Shown here: positions 2,387-18,683 of the stretch, in pieces
How positions within the stretch are numbered: the first letter of the stretch is position 1
How the letters are laid out: every line of letters starts with the position of its first letter
From: Escherichia coli
GTDB taxonomy: Bacteria; Pseudomonadota; Gammaproteobacteria; Enterobacterales; Enterobacteriaceae
Direction: 5' to 3' (one strand)
Assembly (NCBI RefSeq): GCF_003019035.1
Contig: NZ_CP027447.1
Length of the DNA: 64,000 bases
Program-made: the position numbers and the translations under genes
Notes under the pieces: generated by a model
Told to the model about the DNA's origin: nothing
The model's database searches: none
What the model saw: the letters and a program-made list of their open reading frames with translations, nothing else

Positions 2387-3805
2387 TTACGCGTTTTTCA
2401 ACATCCACTCAATTTCTGTTTCTGTGATGAGGCGCTCAAACTGCAACAGCTCATCATTTTTACAGGCGTGATAGACATGGCAGAAGCGTTCGCCTAAATA
2501 GCGGCGCAGGTGATCATTCTCGATAAACTCACCCAGGGCGTCGCTCTGGCGAATCGGGAAGGGTAAGCCTTCCTGTTCCAGCCCGTTACCTTCGACTTCT
2601 TCCTGTAATGGCAGTTCGTTATCAAGGCCATGCAAAATGCCGGCAAAAATCGCCGCCATCACCAGATACGGGTTGGCATCGGCACCCGCCACGCGATATT
2701 CCACGCGGTGATTATGGCGATCGCCGCAGGGAATACGCAGGGCGACGGTGCGGTTGTTATGGCCCCACGACGCCTGCGTCGGTACATACATCCCCGGCTG
2801 GAAGCGGCGATACGAGTTCACGTTTGGTGCCAGCAACGCCATTGATGACGGCATCAGGTCAATCATCCCGGCAAGCATCTTTTTCAGCAGCGGCGAATCT
2901 TCGCCTTCCGCGTCAGAAAGCACGTTCTCGCCACGGTTATTTTGCATACTGATATGGATATGCATCCCGCTGCCCGCGTGCTCTTCATACGGCTTCGCCA
3001 TAAAAGTGGCGTGCATCTTATGCTTTTCTGCCATCAGACGCACCAGGCGTTTTAGTGCCAGCGCATCATCGCAAGCTTCCAGCACGTTATCGGTATGGTA
3101 AAGATTGATTTCAAACTGACCCGGCGAGGCCTCAGCGACCGCGCCATCTGCCGGAATCAGCTGTAACTGCGCCAGTTCATCAATATCATTGAGCACGTCG
3201 GCGAAGTGGTTGAGATTATCAACGGAGTAAACCTGGCTTTGTGTATTGCGGTCATCGGTGCCGGGCGCGCAGGGCGGTTGCAGATACCCTTCAGCGTCGC
3301 GCTGGCGATCCAGTAAATAGAACTCCAGCTCTACCGCTACGACCGGGAACAATCCGCGCTGGCGCAGCTGCTGCCACAGGCGGTTAAGAACGTTCCGCGG
3401 CTCAACGTCAAAGGGAGCGCCATCTTCATCGACCATGGTCAGGAGCATCTGACCTATAAACTCTGGATCGGCGGCAGAAGGGGTTAAGGAACCGAGAACA
3501 GGAACACAGGTACGATCCGGTTCGCCCATTTCCTGACCCAGACCCGCTTCTTCAACTACGTTGCCCAGAATATCCATTGCAAATACCGAGGCCGGGAAAT
3601 AACACCCTTTCTCGAGCTTCTTCAGGCTTGAAACAGGAATACGTTTTCCACGGAAGCAACCATTCAAATCGGTAAGTAAAACATCAACATATTGCGTATT
3701 CGGGTAGCGCTCCAGGTAGCGTTTCACTTCCTGCGTAAAGGCGCTACCCCGCCTCTCTTCTGACTGCTGAACAAAGTTCTCTACTTCAACGATATTGGTT
3801 TCCAT
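2387..3805 (-). CDS. puuA: gamma-glutamylputrescine synthetase (glutamine synthetase family)
   Basis: 472 aa from METNIVEVENF; GS-type catalytic domain; upstream of puuP on the same strand. Confidence 0.9.
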   Translation of the reverse strand: METNIVEVENFVQQSEERRGSAFTQEVKRYLERYPNTQYVDVLLTDLNGCFRGKRIPVSSLKKLEKGCYFPASVFAMDILGNVVEEAGLGQEMGEPDRTCVPVLGSLTPSAADPEFIGQMLLTMVDEDGAPFDVEPRNVLNRLWQQLRQRGLFPVVAVELEFYLLDRQRDAEGYLQPPCAPGTDDRNTQSQVYSVDNLNHFADVLNDIDELAQLQLIPADGAVAEASPGQFEINLYHTDNVLEACDDALALKRLVRLMAEKHKMHATFMAKPYEEHAGSGMHIHISMQNNRGENVLSDAEGEDSPLLKKMLAGMIDLMPSSMALLAPNVNSYRRFQPGMYVPTQASWGHNNRTVALRIPCGDRHNHRVEYRVAGADANPYLVMAAIFAGILHGLDNELPLQEEVEGNGLEQEGLPFPIRQSDALGEFIENDHLRRYLGERFCHVYHACKNDELLQFERLITETEIEWMLKNA

Positions 3806-4016
3806 GATTCTTCGCCTTTGGTTTGTTTTCCGCTCGTTATCAAAGCGTAAAATATAATGACCACCATTCGAATCTGTATGCAAACTAAATGTTTGTTAAA
3901 TGTTAAATTGAGTTTGCAAAAATGAAAACCCACTGCTAGATTGAAAAAATATTGAACATAAAGGTCATTTAAAGCGTAGTAATGGCGATAATTTAGTCCA
4001 CTTTGTGAGATTGAGC
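3806..4016. promoter_or_regulatory. divergent puuA / puuD promoter-operator region (expected PuuR target)
   Basis: AT-rich 211-bp gap between divergently oriented puuA and puuD; exact operator not located. Confidence 0.4.
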
Positions 4017-4781
4017 ATGGAAAATATAATGAACAATCCGGTTATCGGTGTCGTAATGTGCAGGAACAGGCTTAAGGGCCATGCGACCCAGACTCTGCAA
4101 GAAAAGTACCTGAATGCCATCATCCACGCAGGCGGTTTGCCAATAGCGCTACCACATGCGCTGGCGGAACCGTCGTTACTTGAACAACTTTTGCCGAAAC
4201 TCGATGGTATTTATCTTCCTGGTAGTCCCAGCAATGTGCAGCCGCACCTATATGGTGAAAACGGCGATGAGCCTGACGCCGATCCCGGGCGTGATCTTCT
4301 GAGCATGGCGTTAATTAATGCCGCACTCGAAAGGCGCATCCCCATTTTCGCCATCTGCCGGGGTTTACAGGAACTGGTGGTGGCAACCGGTGGTTCGTTG
4401 CATCGCAAGCTGTGCGAACAGCCTGAATTGCTGGAACATCGGGAAGATCCCGAACTGCCGGTGGAGCAGCAATATGCACCGTCGCATGAAGTTCAGGTTG
4501 AAGAGGGGGGATTGCTGTCTGCGTTGTTACCTGAATGTAGCAACTTTTGGGTAAACTCTCTGCATGGACAAGGGGCGAAGGTCGTTAGCCCACGGTTGCG
4601 TGTTGAAGCTCGCTCGCCGGATGGCTTAGTTGAGGCGGTTAGCGTCATCAATCATCCTTTTGCGCTGGGCGTACAGTGGCACCCGGAATGGAACAGTAGC
4701 GAGTACGCGCTTTCGCGTATATTGTTCGAGGGCTTTATCACCGCTTGTCAGCACCATATCGCTGAAAAACAGCGACTCTGA
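4017..4781 (+). CDS. puuD: gamma-glutamyl-GABA hydrolase (class I glutamine amidotransferase-like)
   Basis: 254 aa from MENIMNNPVIGVVM; catalytic Cys in AICRGLQ motif. Confidence 0.9.
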   Translation: MENIMNNPVIGVVMCRNRLKGHATQTLQEKYLNAIIHAGGLPIALPHALAEPSLLEQLLPKLDGIYLPGSPSNVQPHLYGENGDEPDADPGRDLLSMALINAALERRIPIFAICRGLQELVVATGGSLHRKLCEQPELLEHREDPELPVEQQYAPSHEVQVEEGGLLSALLPECSNFWVNSLHGQGAKVVSPRLRVEARSPDGLVEAVSVINHPFALGVQWHPEWNSSEYALSRILFEGFITACQHHIAEKQRL

Positions 4782-4807
4782 CCACTACAGTTTAAGGAAA
4801 TGCAAAT

Positions 4808-5365
4808 ATGAGTGATGAGGGACTGGCGCCAGGAAAACGCTTGTCGGAAATCCGCCAGCAGCAGGGGCTTTCACAACGTCGTGCCGCCGAACTCTCCGGG
4901 CTGACTCACAGTGCTATCAGTACGATAGAACAAGATAAAGTCAGCCCTGCCATCAGTACGCTGCAAAAGCTGCTGAAGGTGTATGGTCTGTCACTCTCGG
5001 AATTCTTTTCCGAGCCGGAAAAACCTGATGAGCCGCAGGTCGTCATTAATCAGGACGACTTAATTGAGATGGGCAGTCAGGGTGTGTCAATGAAGCTGGT
5101 TCATAACGGTAACCCGAATCGCACGCTGGCGATGATCTTTGAAACTTACCAGCCGGGCACAACCACTGGGGAAAGAATTAAGCATCAGGGTGAGGAAATA
5201 GGCACTGTACTGGAAGGTGAAATTGTTCTGACCATTAATGGTCAGGATTATCATCTCGTCGCGGGGCAAAGTTATGCCATTAATACCGGCATCCCGCACA
5301 GTTTCAGTAATACGTCGGCAGGTATTTGCCGAATTATCAGCGCCCATACGCCCACCACGTTTTAA
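4808..5365 (+). CDS. puuR: HTH (XRE) + cupin transcriptional repressor of the puu genes
   Basis: 185 aa; N-terminal HTH (LSQRRAAELSGLTHSAISTIEQ), C-terminal cupin. Confidence 0.9.
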   Translation: MSDEGLAPGKRLSEIRQQQGLSQRRAAELSGLTHSAISTIEQDKVSPAISTLQKLLKVYGLSLSEFFSEPEKPDEPQVVINQDDLIEMGSQGVSMKLVHNGNPNRTLAMIFETYQPGTTTGERIKHQGEEIGTVLEGEIVLTINGQDYHLVAGQSYAINTGIPHSFSNTSAGICRIISAHTPTTF

Positions 5366-5514
5366 TCTTTTTGTTCTGTAAGCCGGGTAAGCGCAATGCG
5401 CCCGGCAATCCATAAAGAATGTCGCCAGAAATAAACGGGCATACGGCCCGGGGATCTCTGCGCCCTGACGTTCACAAACTGCATATATCTGATAGACGTG
5501 AAACAGGAGTCATA

Positions 5515-7002
5515 ATGAATTTTTATCATCTGGCTTACTGGCAGGATAAAGCGTTAAGTCTCGCCATTGAAACCCGCTTATTTATTAACGGTGAATATAC
5601 TGCTGCGGAGGAAAATGAAACTTTTGAAACCGTTGATCCGGTCACCCAGGCACCGCTGGCGAAAATTGCCCGCGGCAAGAGCGTCGATATCGACCGTGCG
5701 GTGAGCGCAGCACGCGGCGTATTTGAACGCGGCGACTGGTCACTCTCTTCTCCGGCTAAACGTAAAGCGGTACTGAATAAACTCGCCGATTTAATGGAAG
5801 CCAACGCCGAAGAGCTGGCACTGCTGGAAACGCTCGACACCGGCAAACCGATTCGTCACAGCCTGCGTGATGATATTCCCGGCGCGGCGCGCGCCATTCG
5901 CTGGTACGCCGAAGCGATCGACAAAGTGTATGGCGAAGTGGCGACCACCAGTAGCCATGAGCTGGCGATGATCGTGCGTGAACCGGTCGGCGTGATTGCC
6001 GCCATCGTGCCGTGGAACTTCCCGCTGCTGCTGACTTGCTGGAAACTCGGCCCGGCGCTGGCGGCGGGAAACAGCGTGATTCTAAAACCGTCTGAAAAAT
6101 CACCGCTCAGTGCGATTCGTCTCGCGGGGCTGGCGAAAGAAGCGGGGCTGCCGGATGGTGTGTTGAACGTGGTGACGGGTTTTGGTCATGAAGCCGGGCA
6201 GGCGCTTTCGCGCCATAACGATATCGATGCCATTGCCTTTACTGGCTCAACCCGCACCGGGAAACAGCTGCTGAAGGACGCGGGCGACAGCAACATGAAA
6301 CGCGTCTGGCTGGAGGCGGGCGGCAAAAGCGCCAACATCGTTTTCGCCGACTGCCCGAATTTGCAACAGGCGGCAAGCGCCACCGCCGCAGGCATTTTCT
6401 ACAACCAGGGCCAGGTGTGCATCGCCGGAACGCGTTTGTTGCTGGAAGAGAGCATCGCCGATGAATTCTTAGCCCTGTTAAAACAGCAGGCGCAAAACTG
6501 GCAGCCGGGCCATCCACTTGATCCCGCAACCACCATGGGCACCTTAATCGACTGCGCCCACGCCGACTCGGTCCATAGCTTTATTCGGGAAGGCGAAAGC
6601 AAAGGGCAACTGCTGCTGGATGGCCGTAACGCCGAGCTGGCTGCCGCCATCGGCCCGACCATCTTTGTGGAGGTAGACCCGAATGCGTCCTTAAGCCGCG
6701 AAGAGATTTTCGGTCCGGTGCTGGTGGTCACGCGTTTCACATCAGAAGAACAGGCGCTACAGCTTGCCAACGACAGCCAGTACGGACTTGGCGCGGCGGT
6801 ATGGACGCGCGACCTCTCCCGCGCGCACCGCATGAGTCGCCGCCTGAAAGCCGGCTCCGTCTTCGTCAATAACTACAACGACGGCGATATGACCGTGCCG
6901 TTTGGCGGCTATAAGCAGAGCGGCAACGGGCGCGACAAATCCCTGCACGCCCTTGAAAAATTCACCGAACTGAAAACTATCTGGATAAGCCTGGAGGCCT
7001 GA
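5515..7002 (+). CDS. puuC: gamma-glutamyl-gamma-aminobutyraldehyde dehydrogenase (NAD(P)-aldehyde dehydrogenase)
   Basis: 495 aa from MNFYHLAYWQDK; ALDH motifs (catalytic Cys in GQVCIAG; ELGGKSA-like EAGGKSA). Confidence 0.9.
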   Translation: MNFYHLAYWQDKALSLAIETRLFINGEYTAAEENETFETVDPVTQAPLAKIARGKSVDIDRAVSAARGVFERGDWSLSSPAKRKAVLNKLADLMEANAEELALLETLDTGKPIRHSLRDDIPGAARAIRWYAEAIDKVYGEVATTSSHELAMIVREPVGVIAAIVPWNFPLLLTCWKLGPALAAGNSVILKPSEKSPLSAIRLAGLAKEAGLPDGVLNVVTGFGHEAGQALSRHNDIDAIAFTGSTRTGKQLLKDAGDSNMKRVWLEAGGKSANIVFADCPNLQQAASATAAGIFYNQGQVCIAGTRLLLEESIADEFLALLKQQAQNWQPGHPLDPATTMGTLIDCAHADSVHSFIREGESKGQLLLDGRNAELAAAIGPTIFVEVDPNASLSREEIFGPVLVVTRFTSEEQALQLANDSQYGLGAAVWTRDLSRAHRMSRRLKAGSVFVNNYNDGDMTVPFGGYKQSGNGRDKSLHALEKFTELKTIWISLEA

Positions 7003-7003
7003 A

Positions 7004-8284
7004 ATGACCGAACATACCAGCAGTTATTACGCCGCCAGTGCGAATAAATACGCACCATTCGACACGCTGAATGAGTCGATTTCCTGCGATGTTTGCGTGG
7101 TCGGCGGCGGCTATACCGGGCTTTCCTCCGCGCTGCATCTGGCGGAAGCGGGCTTTGATGTAGTGGTTCTCGAAGCCTCACGCATCGGCTTCGGCGCAAG
7201 CGGACGCAATGGCGGGCAGCTTGTGAACTCCTACAGCCGCGACATCGACGTGATCGAAAAAAGCTACGGCATGGACACCGCCCGTATGCTCGGCAGCATG
7301 ATGTTTGAAGGCGGAGAGATCATCCGCGAACGTATCAAACGTTATCAGATTGACTGCGACTACCGCCCCGGCGGCCTGTTTGTGGCGATGAATGATAAAC
7401 AGCTCGCCACACTCGAAGAGCAGAAAGAGAACTGGGAACGCTACGGCAATAAACAGCTGGAGCTGCTGGACGCCAACGCTATTCGCCGCGAGGTCGCCAG
7501 CGATCGCTACACTGGTGCGCTGCTGGATCACAGCGGTGGGCATATTCATCCGCTAAACCTCGCCATTGGCGAAGCGGACGCCATCCGCCTGAACGGCGGG
7601 CGCGTGTATGAACTTTCTGCCGTGACGCAGATCCAGCACACCACGCCAGCCGTTGTGCGAACTGCCAAAGGTCAGGTGACGGCGAAATACGTGATTGTCG
7701 CCGGGAATGCGTATCTGGGCGATAAAGTAGAGCCGGAACTAGCGAAACGCAGCATGCCGTGCGGCACGCAGGTGATCACCACCGAACGGCTGTCGGAAGA
7801 TTTAGCCCGTTCGCTGATCCCGAAAAACTACTGTGTGGAAGACTGTAACTATCTGCTTGATTACTACCGCCTGACTGCCGATAACCGCCTGCTGTACGGC
7901 GGCGGAGTGGTCTACGGCGCACGCGACCCGGACGATGTTGAGCGCCTTGTGGTGCCGAAACTGCTGAAAACCTTCCCGCAACTGAAGGGCGTGAAAATTG
8001 ATTACCGCTGGACGGGCAACTTCCTGCTGACCCTGTCACGCATGCCGCAGTTTGGTCGCCTCGATACCAACATCTACTACATGCAGGGCTACAGCGGCCA
8101 CGGCGTCACCTGTACCCACCTCGCCGGGCGTTTGATTGCTGAACTGCTGCGCGGTGACGCCGAGCGTTTCGACGCCTTCGCCAATCTGCCGCATTACCCG
8201 TTCCCCGGCGGGCGCACGCTGCGCGTGCCATTTACCGCGATGGGCGCGGCTTATTACAGCCTGCGCGATCGTCTGGGCGTTTAA
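7004..8284 (+). CDS. puuB: gamma-glutamylputrescine oxidase (FAD-dependent)
   Basis: 426 aa; N-terminal FAD fold VCVVGGGYTGLSSA; starts 1 nt after puuC stop. Confidence 0.9.
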   Translation: MTEHTSSYYAASANKYAPFDTLNESISCDVCVVGGGYTGLSSALHLAEAGFDVVVLEASRIGFGASGRNGGQLVNSYSRDIDVIEKSYGMDTARMLGSMMFEGGEIIRERIKRYQIDCDYRPGGLFVAMNDKQLATLEEQKENWERYGNKQLELLDANAIRREVASDRYTGALLDHSGGHIHPLNLAIGEADAIRLNGGRVYELSAVTQIQHTTPAVVRTAKGQVTAKYVIVAGNAYLGDKVEPELAKRSMPCGTQVITTERLSEDLARSLIPKNYCVEDCNYLLDYYRLTADNRLLYGGGVVYGARDPDDVERLVVPKLLKTFPQLKGVKIDYRWTGNFLLTLSRMPQFGRLDTNIYYMQGYSGHGVTCTHLAGRLIAELLRGDAERFDAFANLPHYPFPGGRTLRVPFTAMGAAYYSLRDRLGV

Positions 8285-8321
8285 TTTCCGATTAACAGTG
8301 AAGAGTCAAAAGGTGTGAAAC

Positions 8322-9587
8322 ATGAGCAACAATGAATTCCATCAGCGTCGTCTTTCTGCTACCCCACGCGGGGTTGGCGTGATGTGTAACTTCTTCGCCC
8401 AGTCGGCAGAAAACGCTACGCTGAAGGACGTAGAGGGCAACGAATACATCGATTTCGCCGCAGGCATTGCGGTGCTGAATACCGGGCATCGCCACCCTGA
8501 TCTGGTCGCGGCGGTGGAGCAGCAATTGCAACAGTTTACCCACACGGCGTATCAGATTGTGCCGTACGAAAGCTACGTCACGCTGGCGGAGAAAATTAAC
8601 GCCCTTGCCCCAGTGAGCGGGCAGGCTAAAACCGCATTCTTCACTACCGGCGCGGAAGCGGTGGAAAACGCGGTGAAAATTGCTCGCGCCCATACCGGAC
8701 GACCTGGCGTGATTGCGTTTAGCGGCGGCTTCCACGGTCGTACATATATGACCATGGCGCTGACCGGAAAAGTTGCGCCGTACAAAATCGGCTTCGGCCC
8801 GTTCCCTGGTTCGGTGTATCACGTACCTTATCCGTCAGATTTACACGGCATTTCAACACAGGACTCCCTCGACGCCATCGAACGCTTGTTTAAATCAGAC
8901 ATCGAAGCGAAGCAGGTGGCGGCGATTATTTTCGAACCGGTGCAGGGCGAGGGCGGTTTCAACGTTGCGCCAAAAGAGCTGGTTGCCGCCATTCGCCGCC
9001 TGTGCGACGAGCACGGCATTGTGATGATTGCCGATGAAGTGCAAAGCGGCTTTGCGCGTACCGGTAAACTGTTTGCCATGGATCATTACGTCGATAAGCC
9101 GGATTTAATGACGATGGCGAAAAGCCTCGCGGGCGGGATGCCGCTTTCGGGCGTGGTCGGTAACGCGAATATTATGGACGCGCCCGCGCCGGGCGGGTTG
9201 GGTGGCACCTACGCCGGGAACCCGCTGGCGGTGGCTGCCGCGCACGCGGTGCTCAATATTATCGACAAAGAATCACTCTGCGAACGCGCGAATCAACTGG
9301 GCCAGCGTCTCAAAAACACGTTGATTGATGCCAAAGAAAGCGTTCCGGCCATTGCTGCGGTACGCGGCCTGGGGTCGATGATTGCGGCAGAGTTTAACGA
9401 TCCGCAAACGGGCGAGCCGTCAGCGGCGATTGCACAGAAAATCCAGCAACGCGCGCTGGCGCAGGGGCTGCTTCTGCTGACCTGTGGCGCATACGGCAAC
9501 GTGATTCGTTTCCTGTATCCGCTGACCATCCTGGATGCGCAATTCGATGCGGCAATGAAAATTTTGCAGGATGCGCTGAAAGATTAA
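8322..9587 (+). CDS. puuE: 4-aminobutyrate aminotransferase (PLP-dependent class III)
   Basis: 421 aa; class-III aminotransferase signature incl. MTMAKSLAGG lysine region. Confidence 0.9.
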   Translation: MSNNEFHQRRLSATPRGVGVMCNFFAQSAENATLKDVEGNEYIDFAAGIAVLNTGHRHPDLVAAVEQQLQQFTHTAYQIVPYESYVTLAEKINALAPVSGQAKTAFFTTGAEAVENAVKIARAHTGRPGVIAFSGGFHGRTYMTMALTGKVAPYKIGFGPFPGSVYHVPYPSDLHGISTQDSLDAIERLFKSDIEAKQVAAIIFEPVQGEGGFNVAPKELVAAIRRLCDEHGIVMIADEVQSGFARTGKLFAMDHYVDKPDLMTMAKSLAGGMPLSGVVGNANIMDAPAPGGLGGTYAGNPLAVAAAHAVLNIIDKESLCERANQLGQRLKNTLIDAKESVPAIAAVRGLGSMIAAEFNDPQTGEPSAAIAQKIQQRALAQGLLLLTCGAYGNVIRFLYPLTILDAQFDAAMKILQDALKD

Positions 9588-9627
9588 TACGCAGAAGCAG
9601 GGTCAACGCAATAATGTCTGATACGCT

Positions 9628-9698
9628 GCGCTTATCAGGCCTGCAAACGACGTATTGATTATGTATGCCGGATAAGGCGTTCACGCCGCATCCGGCAA
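9628..9698. repeat. REP/BIME cluster
   Basis: two REP-like palindromes (GCGCTTATCAGGCCTGC..., TGCCGGATAAGGCGTTCACGCCGCATCCGGCA) between convergent puuE and pspF. Confidence 0.6.
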
Positions 9699-9717
9699 GT
9701 TGTATTGCCCAACTTCG

Positions 9718-10695
9718 CTAAATCTGGTGCTTTTTCAACAACGCGCGGAACTGATGATAGGTTAACCCCAGTAATTCAGCCGCGCGCTTCTGGTTATATT
9801 TCCCTTGTTGCAAACTGAGTTGCAGCAACTCTTTTTCCTGCTGCATCTGAAACTCACGTAAATCCAGCGGCAGTGTTGGAAGCGAGGTGGTTTCTGAAAC
9901 GGCGATAGCGTCTTCAGGCGGACGCCGTTTAAAGGGATCAATAATGATGTCATCAAGCGGATAATCGCTGGTGCCGTGGCGATACACTGAACGTTCCACC
10001 ACGTTTTTCAATTCACGAATATTTCCCGGCCAACGATAATTCAGCAATGTTTCTCTGGCGCGCTCCGTAAAACCCGGGAACAGAGGCAGCTTGATTTCCC
10101 GACACATCTGAATGGCAAAGTGTTCTGCCATCAGCATAATGTCGCTTTCGCGCTCGCGCAGGGGCGGCAGTTGCACTACATCGAAAGCCAGCCGGTCGAG
10201 CAGGTCAGCGCGAAAAGTACCTTCATTGACCATCGCCGGGAGATCGGCATTCGTCGCGCATACCAACCGCACATTCACCTGCAATGGCTGGCTACCGCCA
10301 ACGCGCTCCAGTTCACCGTACTCAATCACACGCAATAATTTTTCCTGCACCATCATCGGTGCCGTAGCGAGTTCATCAAGAAATAGCGTACCGCCATCGG
10401 CACGTTCAAATCTCCCAGGATGACGTTTTTGCGCACCGGTAAACGCCCCCGCTTCGTGACCAAACAGTTCGGAATCCAGCAGATTTTCATTTAACGCCGC
10501 GCAGTTAAGGGAAATAAACGGCCCTTGCCAACGGGAGGAGAGATAATGCAGACGGCTGGCAATCAGCTCTTTACCTGTGCCGCGCTCGCCGATGATGAGC
10601 ACCGGTTTGTCCAGCGGTGCGAGATGCGAAACCTGTTCCAGCACTTCGAGAAAGCTGTTCGCCTCACCGAGTAAATTATCTTTGTATTCTGCCAT
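9718..10695 (-). CDS. pspF: sigma54-dependent activator of the psp operon (AAA+ bEBP lacking receiver domain)
   Basis: 325 aa from MAEYKDNLLGE; Walker A GERGTGKE, GAFTGA motif, C-terminal HTH. Confidence 0.92.
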   Translation of the reverse strand: MAEYKDNLLGEANSFLEVLEQVSHLAPLDKPVLIIGERGTGKELIASRLHYLSSRWQGPFISLNCAALNENLLDSELFGHEAGAFTGAQKRHPGRFERADGGTLFLDELATAPMMVQEKLLRVIEYGELERVGGSQPLQVNVRLVCATNADLPAMVNEGTFRADLLDRLAFDVVQLPPLRERESDIMLMAEHFAIQMCREIKLPLFPGFTERARETLLNYRWPGNIRELKNVVERSVYRHGTSDYPLDDIIIDPFKRRPPEDAIAVSETTSLPTLPLDLREFQMQQEKELLQLSLQQGKYNQKRAAELLGLTYHQFRALLKKHQI

Positions 10696-10789
10696 GATGA
10701 AATTCGCCACTTGTTAGTGTAATTCGCTAATTCATCCTGGCATGTTGCTGTTGATTCTTCAATCAGATCTTTATAAATCAAAAAGATAA

Positions 10790-11530
<741 letters not shown>

Positions 11531-11583
11531 TAACATCCAGGCGGCGTCCGAACGCGCCGCCGCTCATCGTCTAAGGAGTCCTT

Positions 11584-11808
11584 ATGAGCGCGCTATTTCT
11601 GGCTATTCCGTTAACCATTTTTGTGCTGTTTGTTTTACCGATCTGGTTATGGCTGCATTACAGCAATCGTTCTGGTCGCAGTGAATTGTCGCAAAGTGAG
11701 CAGCAGCGATTAGCGCAACTGGCTGATGAAGCAAAACGGATGCGCGAACGTATTCAGGCGCTGGAATCCATTCTTGATGCAGAACATCCGAACTGGAGGG
11801 ATCGCTAA
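11584..11808 (+). CDS. pspB: phage shock protein B (single-TM)
   Basis: 74 aa, N-terminal TM helix; operon position. Confidence 0.9.
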   Translation: MSALFLAIPLTIFVLFVLPIWLWLHYSNRSGRSELSQSEQQRLAQLADEAKRMRERIQALESILDAEHPNWRDR

Positions 11809-12167
11809 TGGCGGGCATTAATCTCAATAAAAAATTATGGCGTATTCCACAGCAGGGCATGGTCCGTGGCGTCTGCGCCGGGATTGCCAACTATTTTGAT
11901 GTACCAGTAAAACTGGTGCGTATCCTGGTGGTGCTGTCGATTTTCTTCGGTCTGGCGCTGTTTACCCTGGTTGCTTACATCATTTTGTCATTTGCGCTTG
12001 ATCCAATGCCGGACAACATGGCCTTTGGTGAGCAGCTACCTTCCAGCAGCGAATTGCTGGATGAAGTCGACCGTGAACTGGCGGCAAGTGAAACGCGTTT
12101 ACGCGAGATGGAACGTTATGTCACTTCCGATACTTTCACGTTACGTAGCCGTTTCCGTCAACTGTGA
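11808..12167 (+). CDS. pspC: phage shock protein C
   Basis: 119 aa; start overlaps pspB stop (ATAATGG); PspC domain. Confidence 0.9.
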
Positions 12168-12175
12168 GGAAAGTT

Positions 12176-12397
12176 ATGAATACTCGCTGGCAACAGGCCG
12201 GGCAAAAGGTGAAGCCTGGGTTCAAATTAGCAGGTAAGCTGGTACTTCTTACCGCACTGCGCTATGGCCCGGCGGGTGTGGCGGGCTGGGCGATAAAATC
12301 AGTTGCTCGCCGACCGCTGAAAATGTTGCTGGCTGTGGCGCTGGAACCGCTGTTAAGTCGGGCTGCCAATAAACTGGCACAGCGTTATAAAAGGTGA
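12176..12397 (+). CDS. pspD: phage shock protein D
   Basis: 73 aa from [11 protein letters not shown]; operon position. Confidence 0.85.
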
Positions 12398-12471
12398 GGG
12401 GAATTTCGCAAAAATTGTTAAAGCTAAGGCGTATTATGGATGGCAATTTTCATCCATAGAAGGACGCTTAC

Positions 12472-12786
12472 ATGTTTAAAAAAGGCTTACTTGCTCTGAC
12501 ACTGGTGTTTTCACTGCCCGTTTTCGCCGCTGAACACTGGATCGATGTTCGTGTTCCAGAGCAGTATCAGCAAGAGCACGTTCAGGGAGCCATCAATATT
12601 CCCCTGAAGGAAGTAAAAGAGCGCATTGCCACCGCCGTTCCGGATAAAAACGACACCGTGAAAGTGTATTGCAATGCCGGACGCCAGTCAGGGCAGGCAA
12701 AAGAGATCCTTAGCGAGATGGGATATACCCACGTTGAGAACGCTGGCGGCCTGAAAGACATCGCAATGCCGAAGGTCAAAGGTTAA
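12472..12786 (+). CDS. pspE: periplasmic rhodanese (thiosulfate sulfurtransferase)
   Basis: 104 aa with signal peptide; rhodanese active-site Cys in VYCNAGRQS. Confidence 0.9.
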   Translation: MFKKGLLALTLVFSLPVFAAEHWIDVRVPEQYQQEHVQGAINIPLKEVKERIATAVPDKNDTVKVYCNAGRQSGQAKEILSEMGYTHVENAGGLKDIAMPKVKG

Positions 12787-12801
12787 CAAATTACTTATTG
12801 A

Positions 12802-12830
12802 GCGGTGTAAACAACGCCGCTTATTCATTT
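12802..12830 (+). terminator. putative intrinsic terminator after pspE
   Basis: GCGGTGTAAACAACGCCGC hairpin followed by TTATTCATTT. Confidence 0.45.
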
Positions 12831-12904
12831 GATAAATCAAAATTAACCCACATTATTATCTCCAGTATCTAATCCTTTCTACAGCTTTCTGGCACAGGAC
12901 AGCA

Positions 12905-14302
12905 ATGAAGCGACTTAAAAATGAACTTAATGCGCTGGTGAATCGGGGTGTCGACAGACATCTGCGCCTCGCCGTAACCGGACTTAGCCGCAGCGGCAAA
13001 ACGGCGTTTATCACTGCGATGGTCAATCAGTTGCTCAATATTCACGCCGGAGCAAGGTTGCCGCTGTTAAGCGCGGTGCGTGAAGAACGGCTGCTGGGCG
13101 TAAAACGCATTCCCCAGCGTGACTTTGGCATTCCGCGCTTCACCTATGATGAAGGGCTGGCGCAGTTATATGGCGATCCACCCGCCTGGCCAACGCCAAC
13201 GCGCGGCGTCAGCGAAATTCGCCTGGCGCTACGTTTTAAATCGAACGATTCGCTGCTACGCCACTTTAAGGATACCTCCACGCTGTATCTGGAGATTGTG
13301 GATTATCCCGGCGAATGGTTGCTCGACCTGCCGATGCTGGCGCAGGACTATTTAAGCTGGTCGCGCCAGATGACGGGCTTACTTAATGGTCAGCGCGGCG
13401 AATGGTCGGCGAAATGGCGAATGATGTGCGAAGGGCTGGACCCGCTAGCGCCTGCCGACGAAAACCGGCTGGCAGACATTGCCGCCGCCTGGACCGAGTA
13501 TCTCCACCACTGCAAACAGCAGGGGTTGCACTTTATTCAGCCTGGGCGCTTTGTCTTGCCGGGAGATATGGCAGGAGCACCCGCGCTGCAATTCTTCCCG
13601 TGGTCGGATGTCGATGCCTGGGGCGAGTCCAAACTGGCGCAGGCCGATAAGCATACCAATGCCGGAATGCTGCGCGAGCGGTTTAATTATTACTGCGAGA
13701 AAGTGGTGAAGGGGTTCTATAAGAATCATTTTCTGCGCTTTGACCGCCAGATTGTGCTGGTGGATTGCCTGCAACCTCTCAACAGTGGGCCACAGGCATT
13801 TAATGATATGCGTCTGGCGCTGACGCAGCTGATGCAAAGTTTCCACTACGGGCAGCGAACCCTGTTCCGGCGTTTGTTTTCACCGGTTATCGATAAGCTA
13901 TTGTTTGCTGCCACTAAAGCAGACCATGTGACCATCGATCAGCACGCCAATATGGTTTCATTACTGCAACAACTGATTCAGGATGCCTGGCAAAATGCGG
14001 CGTTCGAAGGGATCAGCATGGACTGCCTGGGGCTGGCGTCAGTTCAGGCGACCACCAGCGGCATTATTGATGTTAACGGTGAGAAAATCCCGGCGCTGCG
14101 CGGTAATCGACTCAGCGATGGCGCACCGCTCACTGTTTATCCTGGCGAAGTTCCCGCTCGTTTGCCCGGTCAGGCGTTCTGGGATAAGCAAGGCTTCCAG
14201 TTTGAGGCGTTTCGTCCGCAGGTGATGGATGTTGACAAACCGCTGCCGCATATTCGCCTTGATGCTGCGCTGGAATTTTTAATAGGAGATAAATTGCGAT
14301 GA
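12905..14302 (+). CDS. ycjX: YcjX-family P-loop NTPase of unknown function
   Basis: 465 aa; Walker [11 protein letters not shown]; paired with ycjF. Confidence 0.85.
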
Positions 14303-15360
14303 CCGAACCGTTAAAACCACGTATTGATTTCGACGGTCCGCTGGATGTCGATCAGAATCCTGAATTCAGGGCGCAGCAGACCTTTGACGAAAATCAGGCA
14401 CAAAATTTTGCCCCGGCCACACTCGACGAAGCGCCTGAAGAAGAGGGGCAAGTTGAAGCGGTAATGGATGCAGCGTTACGTCCTAAACGCAGCCTGTGGC
14501 GCAAAATGGTGATGGGCGGGCTGGCTCTGTTTGGCGCAAGCGTTGTCGGGCAGGGGGTACAGTGGACAATGAATGCCTGGCAAACCCAGGACTGGGTAGC
14601 GCTGGGTGGATGTGCCGCAGGGGCATTGATTATCGGCGCTGGCGTAGGTTCTGTGGTAACAGAGTGGCGGCGCTTATGGCGCTTGCGACAGCGCGCCCAT
14701 GAACGCGACGAAGCGCGTGATTTATTGCACAGCCATGGCACCGGCAAAGGCCGCGCATTTTGCGAAAAACTGGCGCAGCAGGCGGGCATCGATCAGTCAC
14801 ATCCGGCTCTGCAACGCTGGTATGCCTCAATCCATGAAACGCAAAACGACCGTGAAGTGGTCAGTTTGTATGCGCATTTGGTCCAGCCAGTTTTAGATGC
14901 CCAGGCGCGGCGCGAAATCAGCCGTTCGGCAGCGGAATCAACATTGATGATTGCGGTCAGCCCGCTGGCGCTGGTGGATATGGCATTTATCGCCTGGCGC
15001 AATCTGCGTTTGATTAATCGCATCGCCACGCTGTATGGCATTGAACTGGGGTATTACAGCCGTTTGCGCCTGTTCAAGCTGGTATTGCTGAATATCGCTT
15101 TCGCTGGAGCCAGCGAACTGGTGCGCGAAGTGGGGATGGACTGGATGTCGCAAGATCTCGCTGCTCGTTTGTCTACCCGCGCAGCTCAGGGGATTGGTGC
15201 AGGACTTCTGACGGCACGACTGGGGATTAAAGCTATGGAGCTTTGCCGCCCGCTGCCGTGGCTTGACGATGACAAGCCACGCCTCGGGGATTTCCGTCGT
15301 CAGCTTATCGGTCAGGTGAAAGAAACTCTGCAAAAAGGCAAAACGCCCAGCGAAAAATAA
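14299..15360 (+). CDS. ycjF: YcjF-family inner-membrane protein (DUF697)
   Basis: 353 aa; start overlaps ycjX stop (ATGA) implying translational coupling; TM segments. Confidence 0.85.
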
Positions 15361-15419
15361 TGCAATATCGGGTGCTGACCGGATATCTTTACGCCGAAGT
15401 GCCCGTTTTTCCGTCTTTG

Positions 15420-15437
15420 TGTCAATGATTGTTGACA
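15420..15437. promoter_or_regulatory. TyrR box-like palindrome upstream of tyrR
   Basis: TGTCAA-N6-TTGACA resembles TyrR box consensus TGTAAA-N6-TTTACA; about 70 bp upstream of tyrR ATG. Confidence 0.5.
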
Positions 15438-15507
15438 GAAACCTTCCTGCTATCCAAATAGTGTCATATCATCATATTAATTGTTCTTTTTTCAGGTGAA
15501 GGTTCCC

Positions 15508-17049
15508 ATGCGTCTGGAAGTCTTTTGTGAAGACCGACTCGGTCTGACCCGCGAATTACTCGATCTACTCGTGCTAAGAGGCATTGATTTACGCGGTATT
15601 GAGATTGACCCCATTGGGCGAATCTACCTCAATTTTGCTGAACTGGAGTTTGAGAGTTTCAGCACTCTGATGGCCGAAATACGCCGTATTGCAGGTGTTA
15701 CCGATGTGCGTACTGTCCCGTGGATGCCTTCCGAACGTGAGCATCTGGCGTTGAGCGCGTTACTGGAGGCGTTGCCTGAACCTGTGCTTTCTGTCGATAT
15801 GAAAAGCAAAGTGGATATGGCGAACCCGGCGAGCTGTCAGCTTTTTGGGCAAAAATTGGATCGCCTGCGCAACCATACCGCCGCGCAATTGATTAACGGC
15901 TTTAATTTTTTACGCTGGCTGGAAAGCGAACCGCAAGATTCGCATAACGAGCATGTCGTTATTAATGGGCAGAATTTCCTGATGGAGATTACGCCTGTTT
16001 ATCTTCAGGATGAAAATGATCAACACGTCCTGACCGGTGCGGTGGTGATGCTGCGATCAACGATTCGTATGGGCCGTCAGTTGCAAAATGTCGCTGCCCA
16101 GGACGTCAGCGCCTTTAGTCAAATTGTCGCCGTCAGCCCGAAAATGAAGCATGTTGTCGAACAGGCGCAGAAACTGGCGATGCTAAGCGCGCCACTGCTG
16201 ATTACGGGTGATACCGGCACCGGAAAAGATCTCTTTGCCTACGCCTGTCATCAGGCAAGCCCCAGAGCGAGCAAACCTTACCTGGCGCTGAACTGTGCGT
16301 CTATACCGGAAGATGCGGTCGAGAGTGAACTGTTTGGTCATGCTCCGGAAGGGAAGAAAGGGTTCTTTGAGCAGGCGAACGGTGGTTCGGTGCTGTTGGA
16401 TGAAATAGGGGAAATGTCACCACGGATGCAGGCGAAATTACTGCGTTTCCTTAATGATGGCACCTTCCGTCGGGTTGGCGAAGACCATGAGGTGCATGTC
16501 GATGTGCGGGTGATTTGTGCTACGCAGAAGAATCTGGTCGAACTGGTGCAAAAAGGCGTGTTCCGTGAAGATCTCTATTATCGTCTGAACGTGTTGACGC
16601 TCAATCTGCCGCCGCTACGTGACTGTCCGCAGGACATCATGCCGTTAACCGAGCTGTTCGTCGCCCGCTTTGCCGACGAGCAGGGCGTGCCGCGTCCGAA
16701 ACTGGCCGCTGATCTGAATACTGTACTTACGCGTTATGCGTGGCCGGGAAATGTGCGGCAGTTAAAGAACGCTATCTATCGTGCACTGACACAACTGGAC
16801 GGTTATGAGCTGCGTCCACAGGATATTTTGTTGCCGGATTATGACGCCGCAACGGTAGCCGTGGGCGAAGATGCGATGGAAGGTTCGCTGGACGAAATCA
16901 CCAGCCGTTTTGAACGCTCGGTATTAACCCAGCTTTATCGCAATTATCCCAGCACGCGCAAACTGGCAAAACGTCTCGGCGTTTCACATACCGCGATTGC
17001 CAATAAGTTGCGGGAATATGGTCTGAGTCAGAAGAAGAACGAAGAGTAA
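15508..17049 (+). CDS. tyrR: aromatic amino acid regulator TyrR (ACT-PAS-AAA+-HTH)
   Basis: 513 aa from MRLEVFCEDRLGLTRELLDLL; Walker A GDTGTGKD; ESELFGH motif. Confidence 0.95.
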   Translation: MRLEVFCEDRLGLTRELLDLLVLRGIDLRGIEIDPIGRIYLNFAELEFESFSTLMAEIRRIAGVTDVRTVPWMPSEREHLALSALLEALPEPVLSVDMKSKVDMANPASCQLFGQKLDRLRNHTAAQLINGFNFLRWLESEPQDSHNEHVVINGQNFLMEITPVYLQDENDQHVLTGAVVMLRSTIRMGRQLQNVAAQDVSAFSQIVAVSPKMKHVVEQAQKLAMLSAPLLITGDTGTGKDLFAYACHQASPRASKPYLALNCASIPEDAVESELFGHAPEGKKGFFEQANGGSVLLDEIGEMSPRMQAKLLRFLNDGTFRRVGEDHEVHVDVRVICATQKNLVELVQKGVFREDLYYRLNVLTLNLPPLRDCPQDIMPLTELFVARFADEQGVPRPKLAADLNTVLTRYAWPGNVRQLKNAIYRALTQLDGYELRPQDILLPDYDAATVAVGEDAMEGSLDEITSRFERSVLTQLYRNYPSTRKLAKRLGVSHTAIANKLREYGLSQKKNEE

Positions 17050-17055
17050 GCGTGA

Positions 17056-17088
17056 ATATGCCTGATGGTGCAACACCATCAGGCATAT
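17056..17088. terminator. bidirectional intrinsic terminator between convergent tyrR and tpx
   Basis: perfect palindrome ATATGCCTGATGGTG-CA-ACACCATCAGGCATAT. Confidence 0.7.
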
Positions 17089-17092
17089 TAAC

Positions 17093-17599
17093 TTATGCTT
17101 TCAGTACAGCCAGAGCTGCTTCGTAATCCGGCTCGGTGGTGATTTCATCCACCAGCTGGCTGAAAATCACATTGTCATTTTCATCAATAACCACAACGGC
17201 ACGCGCTGCCAGACCTTTCAGTGGGCCATCAGCAATTGCCACACCGTAGGCTTGCAGGAATTCAGCGTTACGGAAAGTGGAGAGGGTGATAACGTTGTTC
17301 AGACCTTCTGCGCCGCAGAAACGAGACTGGGCGAATGGCAGATCGGCAGAGATACACAGCACAACGGTGTTGTCGATCTCGGTTGCCAGTTGGTTAAACT
17401 TACGTACTGATGCGGCGCAAACACCGGTATCAATACTCGGGAAAATGTTCAGCACTTTGCGTTTACCCGCAAACTGACCGAGGGTGACGTCAGACAGATC
17501 TTTTGCCACGAGAGTAAAAGTCTGCGCTTTGCTACCCGCCTGCGGGATGGAATTGGCGACTGTAACCGGGTTGCCCTGGAAATGAACGGTTTGTGACAT
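17093..17599 (-). CDS. tpx: thiol peroxidase (atypical 2-Cys peroxiredoxin)
   Basis: 168 aa; peroxidatic Cys in TGVCA; sequence recognised. Confidence 0.95.
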
Positions 17600-17717
17600 G
17601 ATTATCTTTCCTGTTTACATATAGTTAACGTCACACCTAGTTTATGCTAACTGTCAATAACACAGCAAACGCTATTTGCGCTTAATCCGCAGACCACCGC
17701 GACAACAAGGAGTAAAG

Positions 17718-18683
17718 ATGAGAACCGTTAAGGTATTTGAGGAGGCCTGGCCCTTACATACCCCGTTTGTGATTGCCCGGGGAAGTCGCAGTGAAGCGCG
17801 CGTGGTGGTGGTTGAACTGGAAGAAGATGGCGTCAAAGGTACGGGCGAATGTACGCCTTATCCGCGCTATGGCGAAAGTGATGCCTCGGTAATGGCGCAA
17901 ATTATGAGCGTCGTGCCGCAATTAGAGAAAGGGCTGACACGGGAGGAGTTACAAAAAATCCTCCCTGCCGGCGCAGCACGTAATGCGCTGGATTGTGCAT
18001 TGTGGGATCTCGCGGCGCGAAAACAGCAGGAATCGCTGGCTGATTTGATCGGCATAACGCTTCCCGGGACAGTTATCACTGCACAGACGGTAGTCATCGG
18101 TACGCCTGATCAGATGGCCAATAGTGCATCAACACTCTGGCAGGCAGGCGCGAAATTACTGAAAGTGAAGCTGGATAACCATCTTATCAGTGAGCGGATG
18201 GTGGCAATTCGCACCGCTGTGCCCGATGCGACGCTGATCGTTGATGCAAATGAATCCTGGCGTGCAGAAGGGTTGGCGGCGCGTTGCCAGCTATTGGCGG
18301 ATTTAGGCGTTGCGATGCTTGAACAACCGCTTCCTGCGCAGGACGATGCGGCACTGGAGAATTTTATTCATCCGTTGCCGATTTGTGCTGATGAAAGTTG
18401 TCATACTCGTAGCAATCTGAAGGCGCTGAAAGGGCGCTATGAGATGGTTAACATTAAGCTTGATAAAACCGGTGGTCTGACGGAAGCGCTGGCGCTGGCG
18501 ACTGAAGCACGTGCACAAGGTTTTAGTCTGATGCTGGGCTGCATGTTGTGTACCTCTCGGGCCATTAGCGCCGCTTTACCGCTGGTGCCGCAGGTCAGTT
18601 TCGCCGATCTTGACGGACCGACCTGGCTGGCGGTAGATGTGGAACCGGCGCTTCAGTTCACGACGGGCGAATTGCATCTTTAG
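17718..18683 (+). CDS. ycjG: L-Ala-D/L-Glu epimerase (enolase superfamily)
   Basis: 321 aa from MRTVKVFEEAW; enolase-superfamily fold; adjacent to mpaA. Confidence 0.85.
   Translation: MRTVKVFEEAWPLHTPFVIARGSRSEARVVVVELEEDGVKGTGECTPYPRYGESDASVMAQIMSVVPQLEKGLTREELQKILPAGAARNALDCALWDLAARKQQESLADLIGITLPGTVITAQTVVIGTPDQMANSASTLWQAGAKLLKVKLDNHLISERMVAIRTAVPDATLIVDANESWRAEGLAARCQLLADLGVAMLEQPLPAQDDAALENFIHPLPICADESCHTRSNLKALKGRYEMVNIKLDKTGGLTEALALATEARAQGFSLMLGCMLCTSRAISAALPLVPQVSFADLDGPTWLAVDVEPALQFTTGELHL

Follow-up and report, generated by a model that had tools for sequence, protein, structure and literature searches.

We suggest, with modest confidence, that ycjX and ycjF constitute a translationally coupled, stress-induced module in which a GTPase (YcjX) and an inner-membrane protein (YcjF) act on the inner membrane in parallel to PspA–C. 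The original prediction held the molecular function of the pair to be unresolved, and the literature that we searched indeed assigns no function to either gene; our analysis leaves their standing unchanged, as a known, uncharacterised and conserved gene pair. Few strongly heat-induced genes of Escherichia coli still lack a known function, and ycjX and ycjF are two of them. To define their role would close a gap in the sigma32 regulon, and might show why the pair is repeatedly linked to the Psp membrane-stress system.

In the window (the whole 64-kb stretch of E. coli DNA that was analysed), the open reading frames place ycjX, a member of the YcjX family (PF04317/DUF463), at 12905–14302 (+ strand, 465 amino acids) and ycjF, of the YcjF/TIGR01620 family with a DUF697 domain, at 14299–15360 (+, 353 amino acids). 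These are the coordinates and the ATGA overlap originally predicted, and the RefSeq annotation of the same DNA likewise reads pspE, ycjX, ycjF. At the junction (...ttgcgATGAcc...), the ycjF ATG (14299–14301) overlaps the ycjX TGA (14300–14302) by 4 nt, which gives the shared ATGA at 14299–14302 (+). A Shine–Dalgarno sequence, AGGA (12896–12899, +), precedes the ycjX start codon by 5 nt, and that of ycjF, AGGAG (14284–14288, +), lies within the conserved Gly-Asp codons at the C terminus of YcjX, which specify the invariant residues G461 and D462 of the alignment. Both genes were found in 5413 of 5426 complete E. coli genomes, and are core chromosomal genes at a fixed locus; this distribution, together with their retention across Enterobacterales and Vibrionaceae, marks them as genuine genes and not chance open reading frames. 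The median of 2 match places per genome raised the possibility that ycjX is a repeat, which was ruled out by sub-queries that recovered ycjX in single copy; the second place is the end of pspE, 14 kb away in most genomes.

[quoted passage not shown] The protein matches the DUF463 profile over its entire length (PF04317, profile positions 1–443 of 443; E = 4e-181; 603 bits, cut-off 25). The Walker A sequence noted earlier, GLSRSGKT, is the G1 motif (12980–13003, +; residues 26–33), in which G26, G31 and K32 are invariant in both YcjX alignments. The G3/Walker B motif DYPG (13301–13312, +; residues 133–136) is followed by an invariant glutamate, E137, and the G4 motif TKAD (13913–13924, +; residues 337–340) conforms to the guanine-specificity pattern [NT]KxD, with T337, K338 and D340 invariant. 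The patterns GxxxxGK[ST], DxxG and [NT]KxD thus occur in the order that defines Ras-like/TRAFAC proteins, and all three motifs are invariant in both alignments. By phmmer, residues 6–464 match PDB 6NZ5 and 6NZ4 at E = 1e-124, and the YcjX part of the AlphaFold2 model superimposes on 6NZ5 (YcjX with GDPCP) and on 6NZ4 and 6NZ6 (YcjX with GDP) with TM scores of 0.86–0.90 and an r.m.s.d. of about 3 Å, 6NZ5 reaching 0.90. The title of the paper of Tsai et al. (2019) was also counted as support for a GTPase. The original description of YcjX as a P-loop NTPase was therefore correct as regards the P-loop, and its unspecified NTPase type can be replaced by a predicted Ras-like GTPase on the grounds of motifs and fold.

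YcjF is predicted to be a polytopic inner-membrane protein. The sequence matches TIGR01620 (E = 1e-129; 433 bits, cut-off 160) and, over residues 183–341, PF05128/DUF697 (E = 1e-55); its AlphaFold2 model is all-helical (pLDDT 84.7, pTM 0.75). Hydropathy, charge and the model together delineate a putative transmembrane helical hairpin at residues ~66–121 (14494–14661, +) that leads into a basic helix, with model helices at 66–95 and 99–144, a hydropathy peak of 1.88 at residue 111 and basic flanks that the predicted topology places on the cytoplasmic side. A second hydropathy peak at residue ~223 (about 1.9 in a 19-residue Kyte–Doolittle window) falls in the DUF697 domain (14845–15321, +), which is modelled as long helical hairpins with a Ser-Pro-kinked hydrophobic tip (residues 213–235) and a glycine-rich helix. 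Seven residues of YcjF are invariant in the alignment: D200, D227, R234, Y246, S292, G298 and R317. The helical DUF697 domain is without a solved relative, and the long YcjF variants with N-terminal extensions contain no extra Pfam domain. Pfam describes DUF697 as 'sometimes associated with GTPase domains'. The hydropathy profile of YcjX contains no hydrophobic segment, in keeping with a soluble protein, and the anticipated pairing of a cytoplasmic NTPase with a membrane partner is consistent with both profiles.

Conservation of the pairing was scored as the same-strand order DUF463 then DUF697 in 82 loci, which were gathered by a genome scan with the YcjX alignment. YcjF is encoded directly 3′ of YcjX in all 82, with a 4-nt ATGA or GTGA overlap in 75 and gaps of 8–15 nt in the other 7, and a DUF463 gene lies immediately 5′ in each of 6 distant YcjF relatives (25–39% identity). 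These arrangements support the view of ycjX–ycjF as a fixed, translationally coupled unit, and the obligate pair proposed earlier, which a lack of conserved pairing across genomes would have refuted, holds in every locus. What the analysis adds is that pairing and stop/start overlap persist down to 25% identity.

A second addition is a concrete candidate for the site at which YcjX docks. The N-terminal tail of YcjF is acidic and mostly variable, apart from a conserved motif, F11 ... F23-x3-Q27-x-F29 (14329–14385, +): position 11 is hydrophobic in 74 of 75 sequences and position 29 in 71 of 75, position 23 is L or F, and Q27 occurs in 42 of 75. Residues ~26–35 rise from a pLDDT of ~55 when YcjF is modelled alone to 84, with β-strands, in a YcjX–linker–YcjF fusion model, and on the basis of this model the tail motif probably docks onto YcjX. 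The fusion model has a pTM of only 0.55, and the tail strands in it may pair with each other instead of with YcjX. One could accordingly propose that the two proteins are co-expressed without forming a complex and that YcjX is a cytosolic GTPase free to act on a target of its own, as the low pTM and the crystal structures, which contain YcjX alone, would allow. We consider this improbable, given the invariant adjacency and stop/start overlap described above and the gain of model confidence in the tail motif only when YcjX is present.

Upstream of the pair lie pspF (9718–10710, − strand) and pspABCDE (10862–12786, +), both identified from the open reading frames and from phmmer matches in orthologous loci, with a pspA sigma54 promoter, TGGCACGCAAATTGTA, at 10795–10810 (1 mismatch to the sigma54 consensus). 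A terminator-like hairpin (12799–12823, +), with a 10-bp stem and followed by an interrupted U-tract (UUAUUCAUUU), was found by a terminator scan downstream of pspE; its RNA fold has a free energy of −14.7 kcal/mol (z = −4.25), and the K-12 counterpart has −15.8 kcal/mol and a U9 tract. The reported 118 bp between the pspE terminator and ycjX holds when counted from the pspE stop codon (12786), whereas the terminator itself lies closer, inside this gap, and ends 81 nt 5′ of the ATG. ycjX adjoins pspE in this strain because a 14-kb ycjM–ycjW island is absent. In K-12 this island (ycjM...ompG, ycjW) separates the two genes by 14.1 kb, as it does in ~93% of E. coli genomes; the direct pspE–ycjX junction occurs in 372 of 5426 complete genomes (~7%), which makes the arrangement seen here a minority one for the species. 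Across the 82 loci, a psp gene is located within 300 nt 5′ of ycjX in 55 and is absent within 3–8 kb in 21, including all Vibrio loci, and in 13 loci (Yersinia, Serratia, Rahnella, Pantoea and others) pspD overlaps the start of ycjX by 20–26 nt, an arrangement that implies a shared transcript from the pspA promoter and agrees with the pspABCD–ycjXF operon of Yersinia enterocolitica (PMC3467454). The adjacency to psp is thus facultative: the position beside the psp operon that drew attention to the pair is real in this strain, but as a general link it is optional and has already been published (Huvet 2010, PMC3041696; PMC3467454; Popp 2022, PMC9239133).

The promoter search proposed for the region upstream of 12905 gave a negative result for sigma54 and a moderate one for sigma32. 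No sigma54 site (TGGCAC-N5-TTGCW, up to 2 mismatches) was found in 12787–12904. A TGGCAC at 12890–12895 was rejected as a sigma54 element, because the spacing of its GC element is wrong and the site runs up against the start codon. With no such site, and with a stable hairpin between pspE and ycjX, ycjX does not appear to belong to the PspF regulon here; some read-through of that hairpin into ycjX is nonetheless conceivable. The exact sigma32 consensus had no match anywhere in the 64-kb window, and mismatch-tolerant scoring was then used. The candidate sigma32 promoter (12829–12855, +) combines a −35 element, TTGATA (12829–12834), a 13-nt spacer and a −10 element, CCACATTA (12848–12855), which ends 49 nt 5′ of the ycjX ATG. 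The site scores 10 of 13 against TTGAAA-N13-CCCCATNT (spacers of N13–14 allowed), which 3.4% of random 130-nt windows also attain, and is overlapped by a sigma70-like site, TTGATA-16-CATTAT. Similar motifs with scores of up to 12/13 occur 45–59 nt 5′ of the ATG in Citrobacter, Enterobacter, Pluralibacter and others, so that the position of the motif is conserved across Enterobacteriaceae. In K-12 the corresponding site, TTGATA-14-CCCCACAT, scores 11/13. It is not the same DNA as the site in the window, because similarity upstream of ycjX is limited to the last ~15 nt before the ATG. The wiring of the pair differs by lineage, with a sigma32-like motif in some and the pspD/ycjX overlap in others, a further point added by this analysis.

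Expression data from the literature show that both genes respond early to heat shock, as part of the sigma32 regulon of K-12, and are also induced by envelope-damaging conditions. A sigma32 promoter of K-12 ycjX was mapped by Nonaka (2006), as cited in a passage of PMC3041696, and ycjX–ycjF are among the early heat-responsive genes (PMC7572479). The pair is upregulated at the RNA and protein levels during phiX174 infection (PMC8125068) and is listed as differentially expressed in an array study of periplasmic scFv production and chaperone co-expression (PMC2868799). Huvet et al. (PMC3041696) argue that sigma32 and Psp control would each call for expression in a different set of conditions.

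These data also bear on the competing explanation that we take most seriously, although we consider it rather unlikely: that ycjXF is a sigma32 proteostasis module, active for example in membrane-protein quality control or translation, which has no tie to Psp and sits beside psp only through inherited synteny. The K-12 promoter (in the passage of PMC3041696 mentioned above) and the early heat response would both follow from such a role, as would the absence of a sigma54 site 5′ of ycjX in the window, the lack of nearby psp genes in 21 loci and the 14.1 kb that split pspE from ycjX in K-12 and most other E. coli. In addition, 14% of Psp-null genomes contain DUF463 (PMC9239133), and no Psp-type phenotype was seen in Yersinia, where pspF, A, B and C were the only genes whose non-polar deletion had a robust phenotype (PMC3467454). 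Inherited synteny sits less well with the recurrence of psp adjacency, which extends from the 55 loci to a distant metagenomic locus (L087), with the co-transcription from the pspA promoter that the 13 pspD/ycjX overlaps imply, or with the induction of both systems by phiX174 infection (PMC8125068).

Two further readings draw on the surroundings of the pair. Downstream lies tyrR (15508–17049, +, named from the K-12 annotation), a conserved neighbour located within 400 nt 3′ of the pair in 57 of the 82 loci, and ycjXF could serve TyrR-related physiology (aromatic amino-acid sensing or transport) through co-transcription. RegulonDB, as cited in a passage of PMC3041696, lists a ycjX–ycjF–tyrR transcription unit, the same passage describes near-identical phyletic profiles of the three genes, and TyrR-like regulators follow the pair in two distant loci (L004 and L089). 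Yet tyrR is missing despite ample flank in several loci (such as L001, L003, L013, L032, L034 and L061) and absent downstream in L087 and L088, the pair responds to heat and envelope stress and not to amino-acid signals, and neither protein shows any likeness to transporters or ligand-binding domains, all of which makes this reading quite improbable. The least probable reading makes ycjXF an anti-phage or conflict system of the DO-GTPase kind. In its favour, the psp-linked GTPase is assigned to the 'DO-GTPase family' by Ravi et al. (2024), who cite Kaur 2020 and Tsai 2019; YcjX has a conserved glutamate after Walker B (E137), a feature described for DO-GTPases (PMC7159879), and phiX174 infection upregulates the pair (PMC8125068). 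A core pair at a fixed locus in nearly all E. coli genomes does not fit such a system. Neither protein matches a PADLOC family at E ≤ 0.01, and the GAP1 partner, the paralogous second GTPase and the variable effector genes were not seen in any of the surveyed loci, whose neighbourhoods hold psp, tyrR, ompG/ycjW, tonB–exbBD or fumarase genes and no effectors.

For the coupled GTPase and inner-membrane module that we favour, the following scheme can be envisaged. Both proteins would be translated in a coupled fashion from a single message, probably at a constant ratio, and would assemble into a complex on the cytoplasmic side of the inner membrane, with the N-terminal tail of YcjF as the probable point of contact. 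The GTP/GDP cycle of YcjX would switch the conformation or assembly state of YcjF, and the module would exert its effect on the inner membrane when the cell meets heat or membrane stress, alongside PspA–C and outside the Psp system. In this strain, the pair most likely retains a sigma32-type promoter of its own, downstream of a pspE terminator that leaks to some extent. A role in membrane integrity, as originally suggested, is what we infer from these features. The Yersinia deletion phenotypes, the modest score of the sigma32-like site, located in DNA that does not align with the region upstream of ycjX in K-12, and the argument of Huvet et al. weigh against the scheme. More speculatively, and with considerable doubt, YcjX–YcjF might be a split GTP-gated device for membrane remodelling or repair, in which the YcjF hairpin tips enter the cytoplasmic leaflet and YcjX, recruited through the F...F/L-x3-Q-x-F peptide, drives assembly and disassembly. 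If so, the device would represent a second arm of inner-membrane stress protection that is independent of ESCRT-III-like proteins, and is wired to sigma32 in Enterobacteriaceae or to the PspF/sigma54 operon in Yersinia-type genomes.

A close comparison is the ycjX–ycjF(–tyrR) unit of E. coli K-12, which has ~97.5% DNA identity in the genes and matches the window in the ATGA overlap and in having tyrR and tpx downstream, but has ycjW and ompG upstream and pspE 14.1 kb away. In the Y. enterocolitica operon (Darwin and co-workers; PMC3467454), both genes directly follow the psp genes; in the window, by contrast, pspE, the terminator hairpin and a 118-bp spacer intervene, and ycjX appears to have its own promoter, outside the sigma54 transcript. 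The Shewanella oneidensis YcjX of the crystal structures (PDB 6NZ4, 6NZ5 and 6NZ6; Tsai et al.) is an orthologue with 46–47% identity and like G1, G3 and G4 motifs, from another species with other flanking genes, and its structures were determined without YcjF. With the DO-GTPase/GAP1 systems (Kaur et al. 2020, PMC7159879), many of which are membrane-associated, YcjX shares a TRAFAC-type GTPase and the glutamate after Walker B, whereas ycjXF occupies a core housekeeping locus and lacks GAP1, a paired paralogous GTPase, a zinc ribbon and variable effectors. The bacterial dynamin-like proteins BDLP and LeoA, and atlastin, offer an analogy in function only, that of a GTPase coupled to a membrane hairpin and helical stalks.

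Genes for YcjX and YcjF are adjacent wherever we examined them. A genome scan with a YcjX alignment, one genome per species, gave at least 597 relatives; we analysed the best 80 of these loci (Enterobacterales and Vibrionaceae) together with those of distant YcjF representatives, and the pairing counts rest on 82 non-redundant intact loci. YcjF is encoded directly 3′ of YcjX in 82/82, with a 4-nt ATGA or GTGA overlap in 75 and gaps of just 8–15 nt in the remaining 7. Six YcjF representatives at 25–39% identity to the E. coli protein all have a DUF463 gene immediately upstream (4-nt overlap in four, 7-nt overlap in one and a 39-nt gap in one). The original prediction of a two-component unit is therefore borne out, with no break in pairing in either set; near-universal adjacency across species was already reported by Huvet et al. 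(PMC3041696). The sole locus in which the pair is not intact is a draft Mixta sp. assembly (L064, 8001–9397), where a frameshift or sequencing error breaks ycjX into two ORFs. In two distant loci (L004 2824–3009 and L089 3394–3615), a conserved small ORF lies 9–18 nt 5′ of the DUF463 gene. It encodes 61–73 amino acids with two predicted transmembrane helices, is 56% identical between the loci, has no Pfam match or likeness to Psp proteins, and may add a third component to the unit in that lineage.

In the window, pspF (9718–10710, minus strand) and pspA, B, C, D and E (10862–12786, plus strand) are followed by ycjX (12905–14302), ycjF (14299–15360), tyrR (ATG at 15508, end at 17049) and tpx (minus strand). 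Mechanical ORF calls start pspD at a GTG (12164–12397) and tyrR at a TTG (15481–17049); both exceed the K-12 annotation, in which pspD is 222 nt and tyrR begins at the ATG equivalent to window position 15508. The predicted ATGA overlap of ycjX and ycjF is present at 14299–14302, and the AGGAG that precedes the ycjF ATG (14284–14288) lies inside conserved Gly-Asp codons of YcjX. The surrounding 2.8 kb are 100% identical to E. coli strain SCU-301, and at least 80% of this region is present in 5413/5426 complete E. coli genomes; ycjXF is thus a core, fixed E. coli locus. The family-wise picture is unremarkable except for the strain-level absence of the carbohydrate-utilisation cluster ycjM–ycjW/ompG (14.1 kb in K-12), which is missing at 12787–12904; the window has no YcjW or OmpG homologue.

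Adjacency to psp is real but optional, and is already published. In 55/82 loci, ycjX has a psp gene no more than 300 nt upstream, and in 13 of those 55 (Yersinia, Serratia, Rahnella, Pantoea, Morganella and others) pspD runs 20–26 nt past the ycjX start; in 21/82, including all Vibrio loci, Enterobacter cloacae and Pectobacterium, no psp gene occurs within 3–8 kb. The literature also describes the linkage as loose (PMC3041696, PMC9239133). In K-12 (L086), pspE and ycjX are separated by 14,113 bp (3711–17823) that contain ycjM-N-O-P-Q-R-S-T, pgmB, ycjV, ompG and ycjW, and similarity to the window breaks off on the left just past the pspE hairpin, and on the right ~15 nt short of the ycjX ATG. 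The 131-nt pspE–ycjX junction of the window is found in only 372/5426 complete E. coli genomes; because direct junction is the exception in this species, most genomes yield two places for a combined pspE and ycjX query. The direct junction recurs in E. albertii and Citrobacter youngae; the order ompG–ycjW–ycjX is common to Enterobacter, Superficieibacter and Siccibacter, and two other Citrobacter (L029, sp. FP75; L058, C. werkmanii; ~5360–8000) have ompG, ycjW (minus strand), pspE and ycjX, with the island on the opposite side of pspE from that in K-12, pspE still adjoining ycjX and pspABCD not within 8 kb. These differing orders indicate that the island is mobile relative to pspE. An exbB–exbD–tonB–TPR cluster precedes ycjXF in two distant loci (L003 173–4457 and L088 1–2832), a setting that recurs as an alternative to psp. 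A metagenomic locus (L087 877–6533) carries pspF (minus strand), pspA, pspB, pspC, a DUF463 gene and a 510-amino-acid YcjF, the N-terminal extension of which (~220 residues) has no Pfam domain.

The predicted distance of 118 bp between the pspE terminator and ycjX is correct as a number but is measured from the pspE stop codon, and a terminator-like hairpin (12799–12823; −14.7 kcal/mol, z = −4.25) sits within the spacer. The hairpin is conserved relative to K-12 (window 12799–12835; L086 3714–3759) with a broken U-tract (UUAUUCAUUU versus U9 in K-12), and some psp read-through into ycjXF may therefore occur. A sigma54 motif upstream of ycjX, one option raised originally, was not found between pspE and ycjX at up to two mismatches, in a scan that recovered its positive control, the known pspA promoter (TGGCACGCAAATTGTA, 10795–10810, one mismatch, 52 nt 5′ of the pspA ATG). 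TGGCAC at 12890–12895 was rejected as such a site, having no correctly spaced GC element and abutting the start codon. For sigma32, the other option, a candidate site (TTGATA 12829–12834, 13-nt spacer, CCACATTA 12848–12855) matches 10/13 consensus positions and stops 49 nt short of the ycjX ATG, but is weak by itself because 3.4% of random 130-nt windows score equally. Its position is kept in Enterobacteriaceae, where similar motifs occur at 45–59 nt, several with 11–12 of 13 positions, irrespective of the upstream gene. The K-12 site (TTGATA-14-CCCCACAT, 11/13) ends 54 nt before the ATG, and a K-12 ycjX sigma32 promoter has been mapped (Nonaka 2006, as cited in PMC3041696); because K-12 similarity stops ~15 nt 5′ of the ATG, the putative window promoter is a different allele from the mapped one. 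No sigma32-like motif was found in Yersinia-type loci with the pspD/ycjX overlap. These motif patterns suggest that control is wired by lineage, some relying on sigma32 and others on the psp transcript.

YcjX is a full-length PF04317/DUF463 member (E = 4e-181) with no hydrophobic segment found in its sequence. The Walker A motif GLSRSGKT was correctly identified (residues 26–33), but 'P-loop NTPase' is too generic a label. G1 (GLSRSGKT), G3 (DYPG then an invariant Glu) and G4 (TKAD, the guanine-specificity motif) are invariant in our alignments, the protein matches Shewanella 'YcjX stress protein' chains 6NZ4/5/6 (E = 1e-124), and the YcjX portion of an AlphaFold model can be overlaid on both YcjX-GDPCP and YcjX-GDP (TM 0.86–0.90). 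YcjF has matches to TIGR01620 (E = 1e-129) and, at residues 183–341, to DUF697, and a model built on 75 diverse homologues is confident and all-helical (pLDDT 84.7, pTM 0.75). Model and sequence delineate an acidic, disordered N-terminal tail (residues 1–60), variable apart from conserved F11, L/F23, Q27 and F29; a transmembrane hairpin (66–121) that continues into a strongly basic helix; and a DUF697 part with long helical hairpins, a hydrophobic Ser-Pro-kinked tip (213–235) and a glycine-rich helix. In two single-member clusters from the homologue search (P0004 and P0010), DUF697 seems to be joined to ADH_N or ABC_tran domains; faulty assembly or gene calling is the probable cause.

Together, these data show that an inner-membrane protein and a soluble protein that binds guanine nucleotides are encoded side by side throughout, that their translation is coupled, and that heat and envelope stress induce both. 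Both genes are early heat-responsive (PMC7572479), rise with psp genes at the RNA and protein levels during phiX174 infection (PMC8125068) and are among those differentially expressed on microarrays when scFv is produced in the periplasm with chaperones co-expressed (PMC2868799). On balance, we favour ycjXF as a stress-induced, membrane-anchored GTPase switch that acts on the inner membrane in parallel to Psp. On this view, YcjX would associate with YcjF on the cytoplasmic side of the membrane, and the YcjX GTPase cycle would switch YcjF within the resulting complex. A purely sigma32/proteostasis module, with the psp neighbourhood as synteny only, is unlikely but the most serious competitor; it sits easily with the heat response and the psp-free loci, and less so with the joint response with psp to phage. 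Co-expression of YcjX and YcjF without interaction seems improbable. In a YcjX-(G4S)6-YcjF fusion modelled on 15 paired sequences (pLDDT 71.8, pTM 0.55 overall), YcjF residues ~26–35 rise from pLDDT ~55 alone to 84 and β-strands newly appear at 27–29 and 37–39; the gain coincides with the conserved tail residues and hints at a possible YcjX contact site.

A TyrR-related role, suggested by the conservation of tyrR downstream in 57/82 loci and by an annotated ycjX–ycjF–tyrR transcript, is in our view more doubtful still. As for the membrane switch, non-polar deletions in Yersinia gave robust phenotypes tied to PspF, A, B and C only (PMC3467454), and the literature searched, in keeping with the original prediction, assigns no biochemical function to YcjX or YcjF. 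What was originally observed is correct, and the interpretation put on it is reasonable but right only in part: the conserved coupled pair stands, the psp linkage is optional, and a membrane-integrity role is a proposal. The gene pair, psp linkage, sigma32 control and YcjX structure are all published and already known; the function of ycjXF is a testable question of moderate specialist interest.

Least probable is a conflict system of the DO-GTPase type, a reading implied by Ravi 2024: unlike such systems, ycjXF is a core, fixed locus without GAP1 or effector neighbours, and neither protein has a PADLOC match. The published pspABCD–ycjXF operon of Y. enterocolitica (PMC3467454) agrees with the pspD/ycjX overlap in 13 surveyed loci, and the fold of the E. 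coli YcjX model is equivalent to that of the Shewanella YcjX structures.
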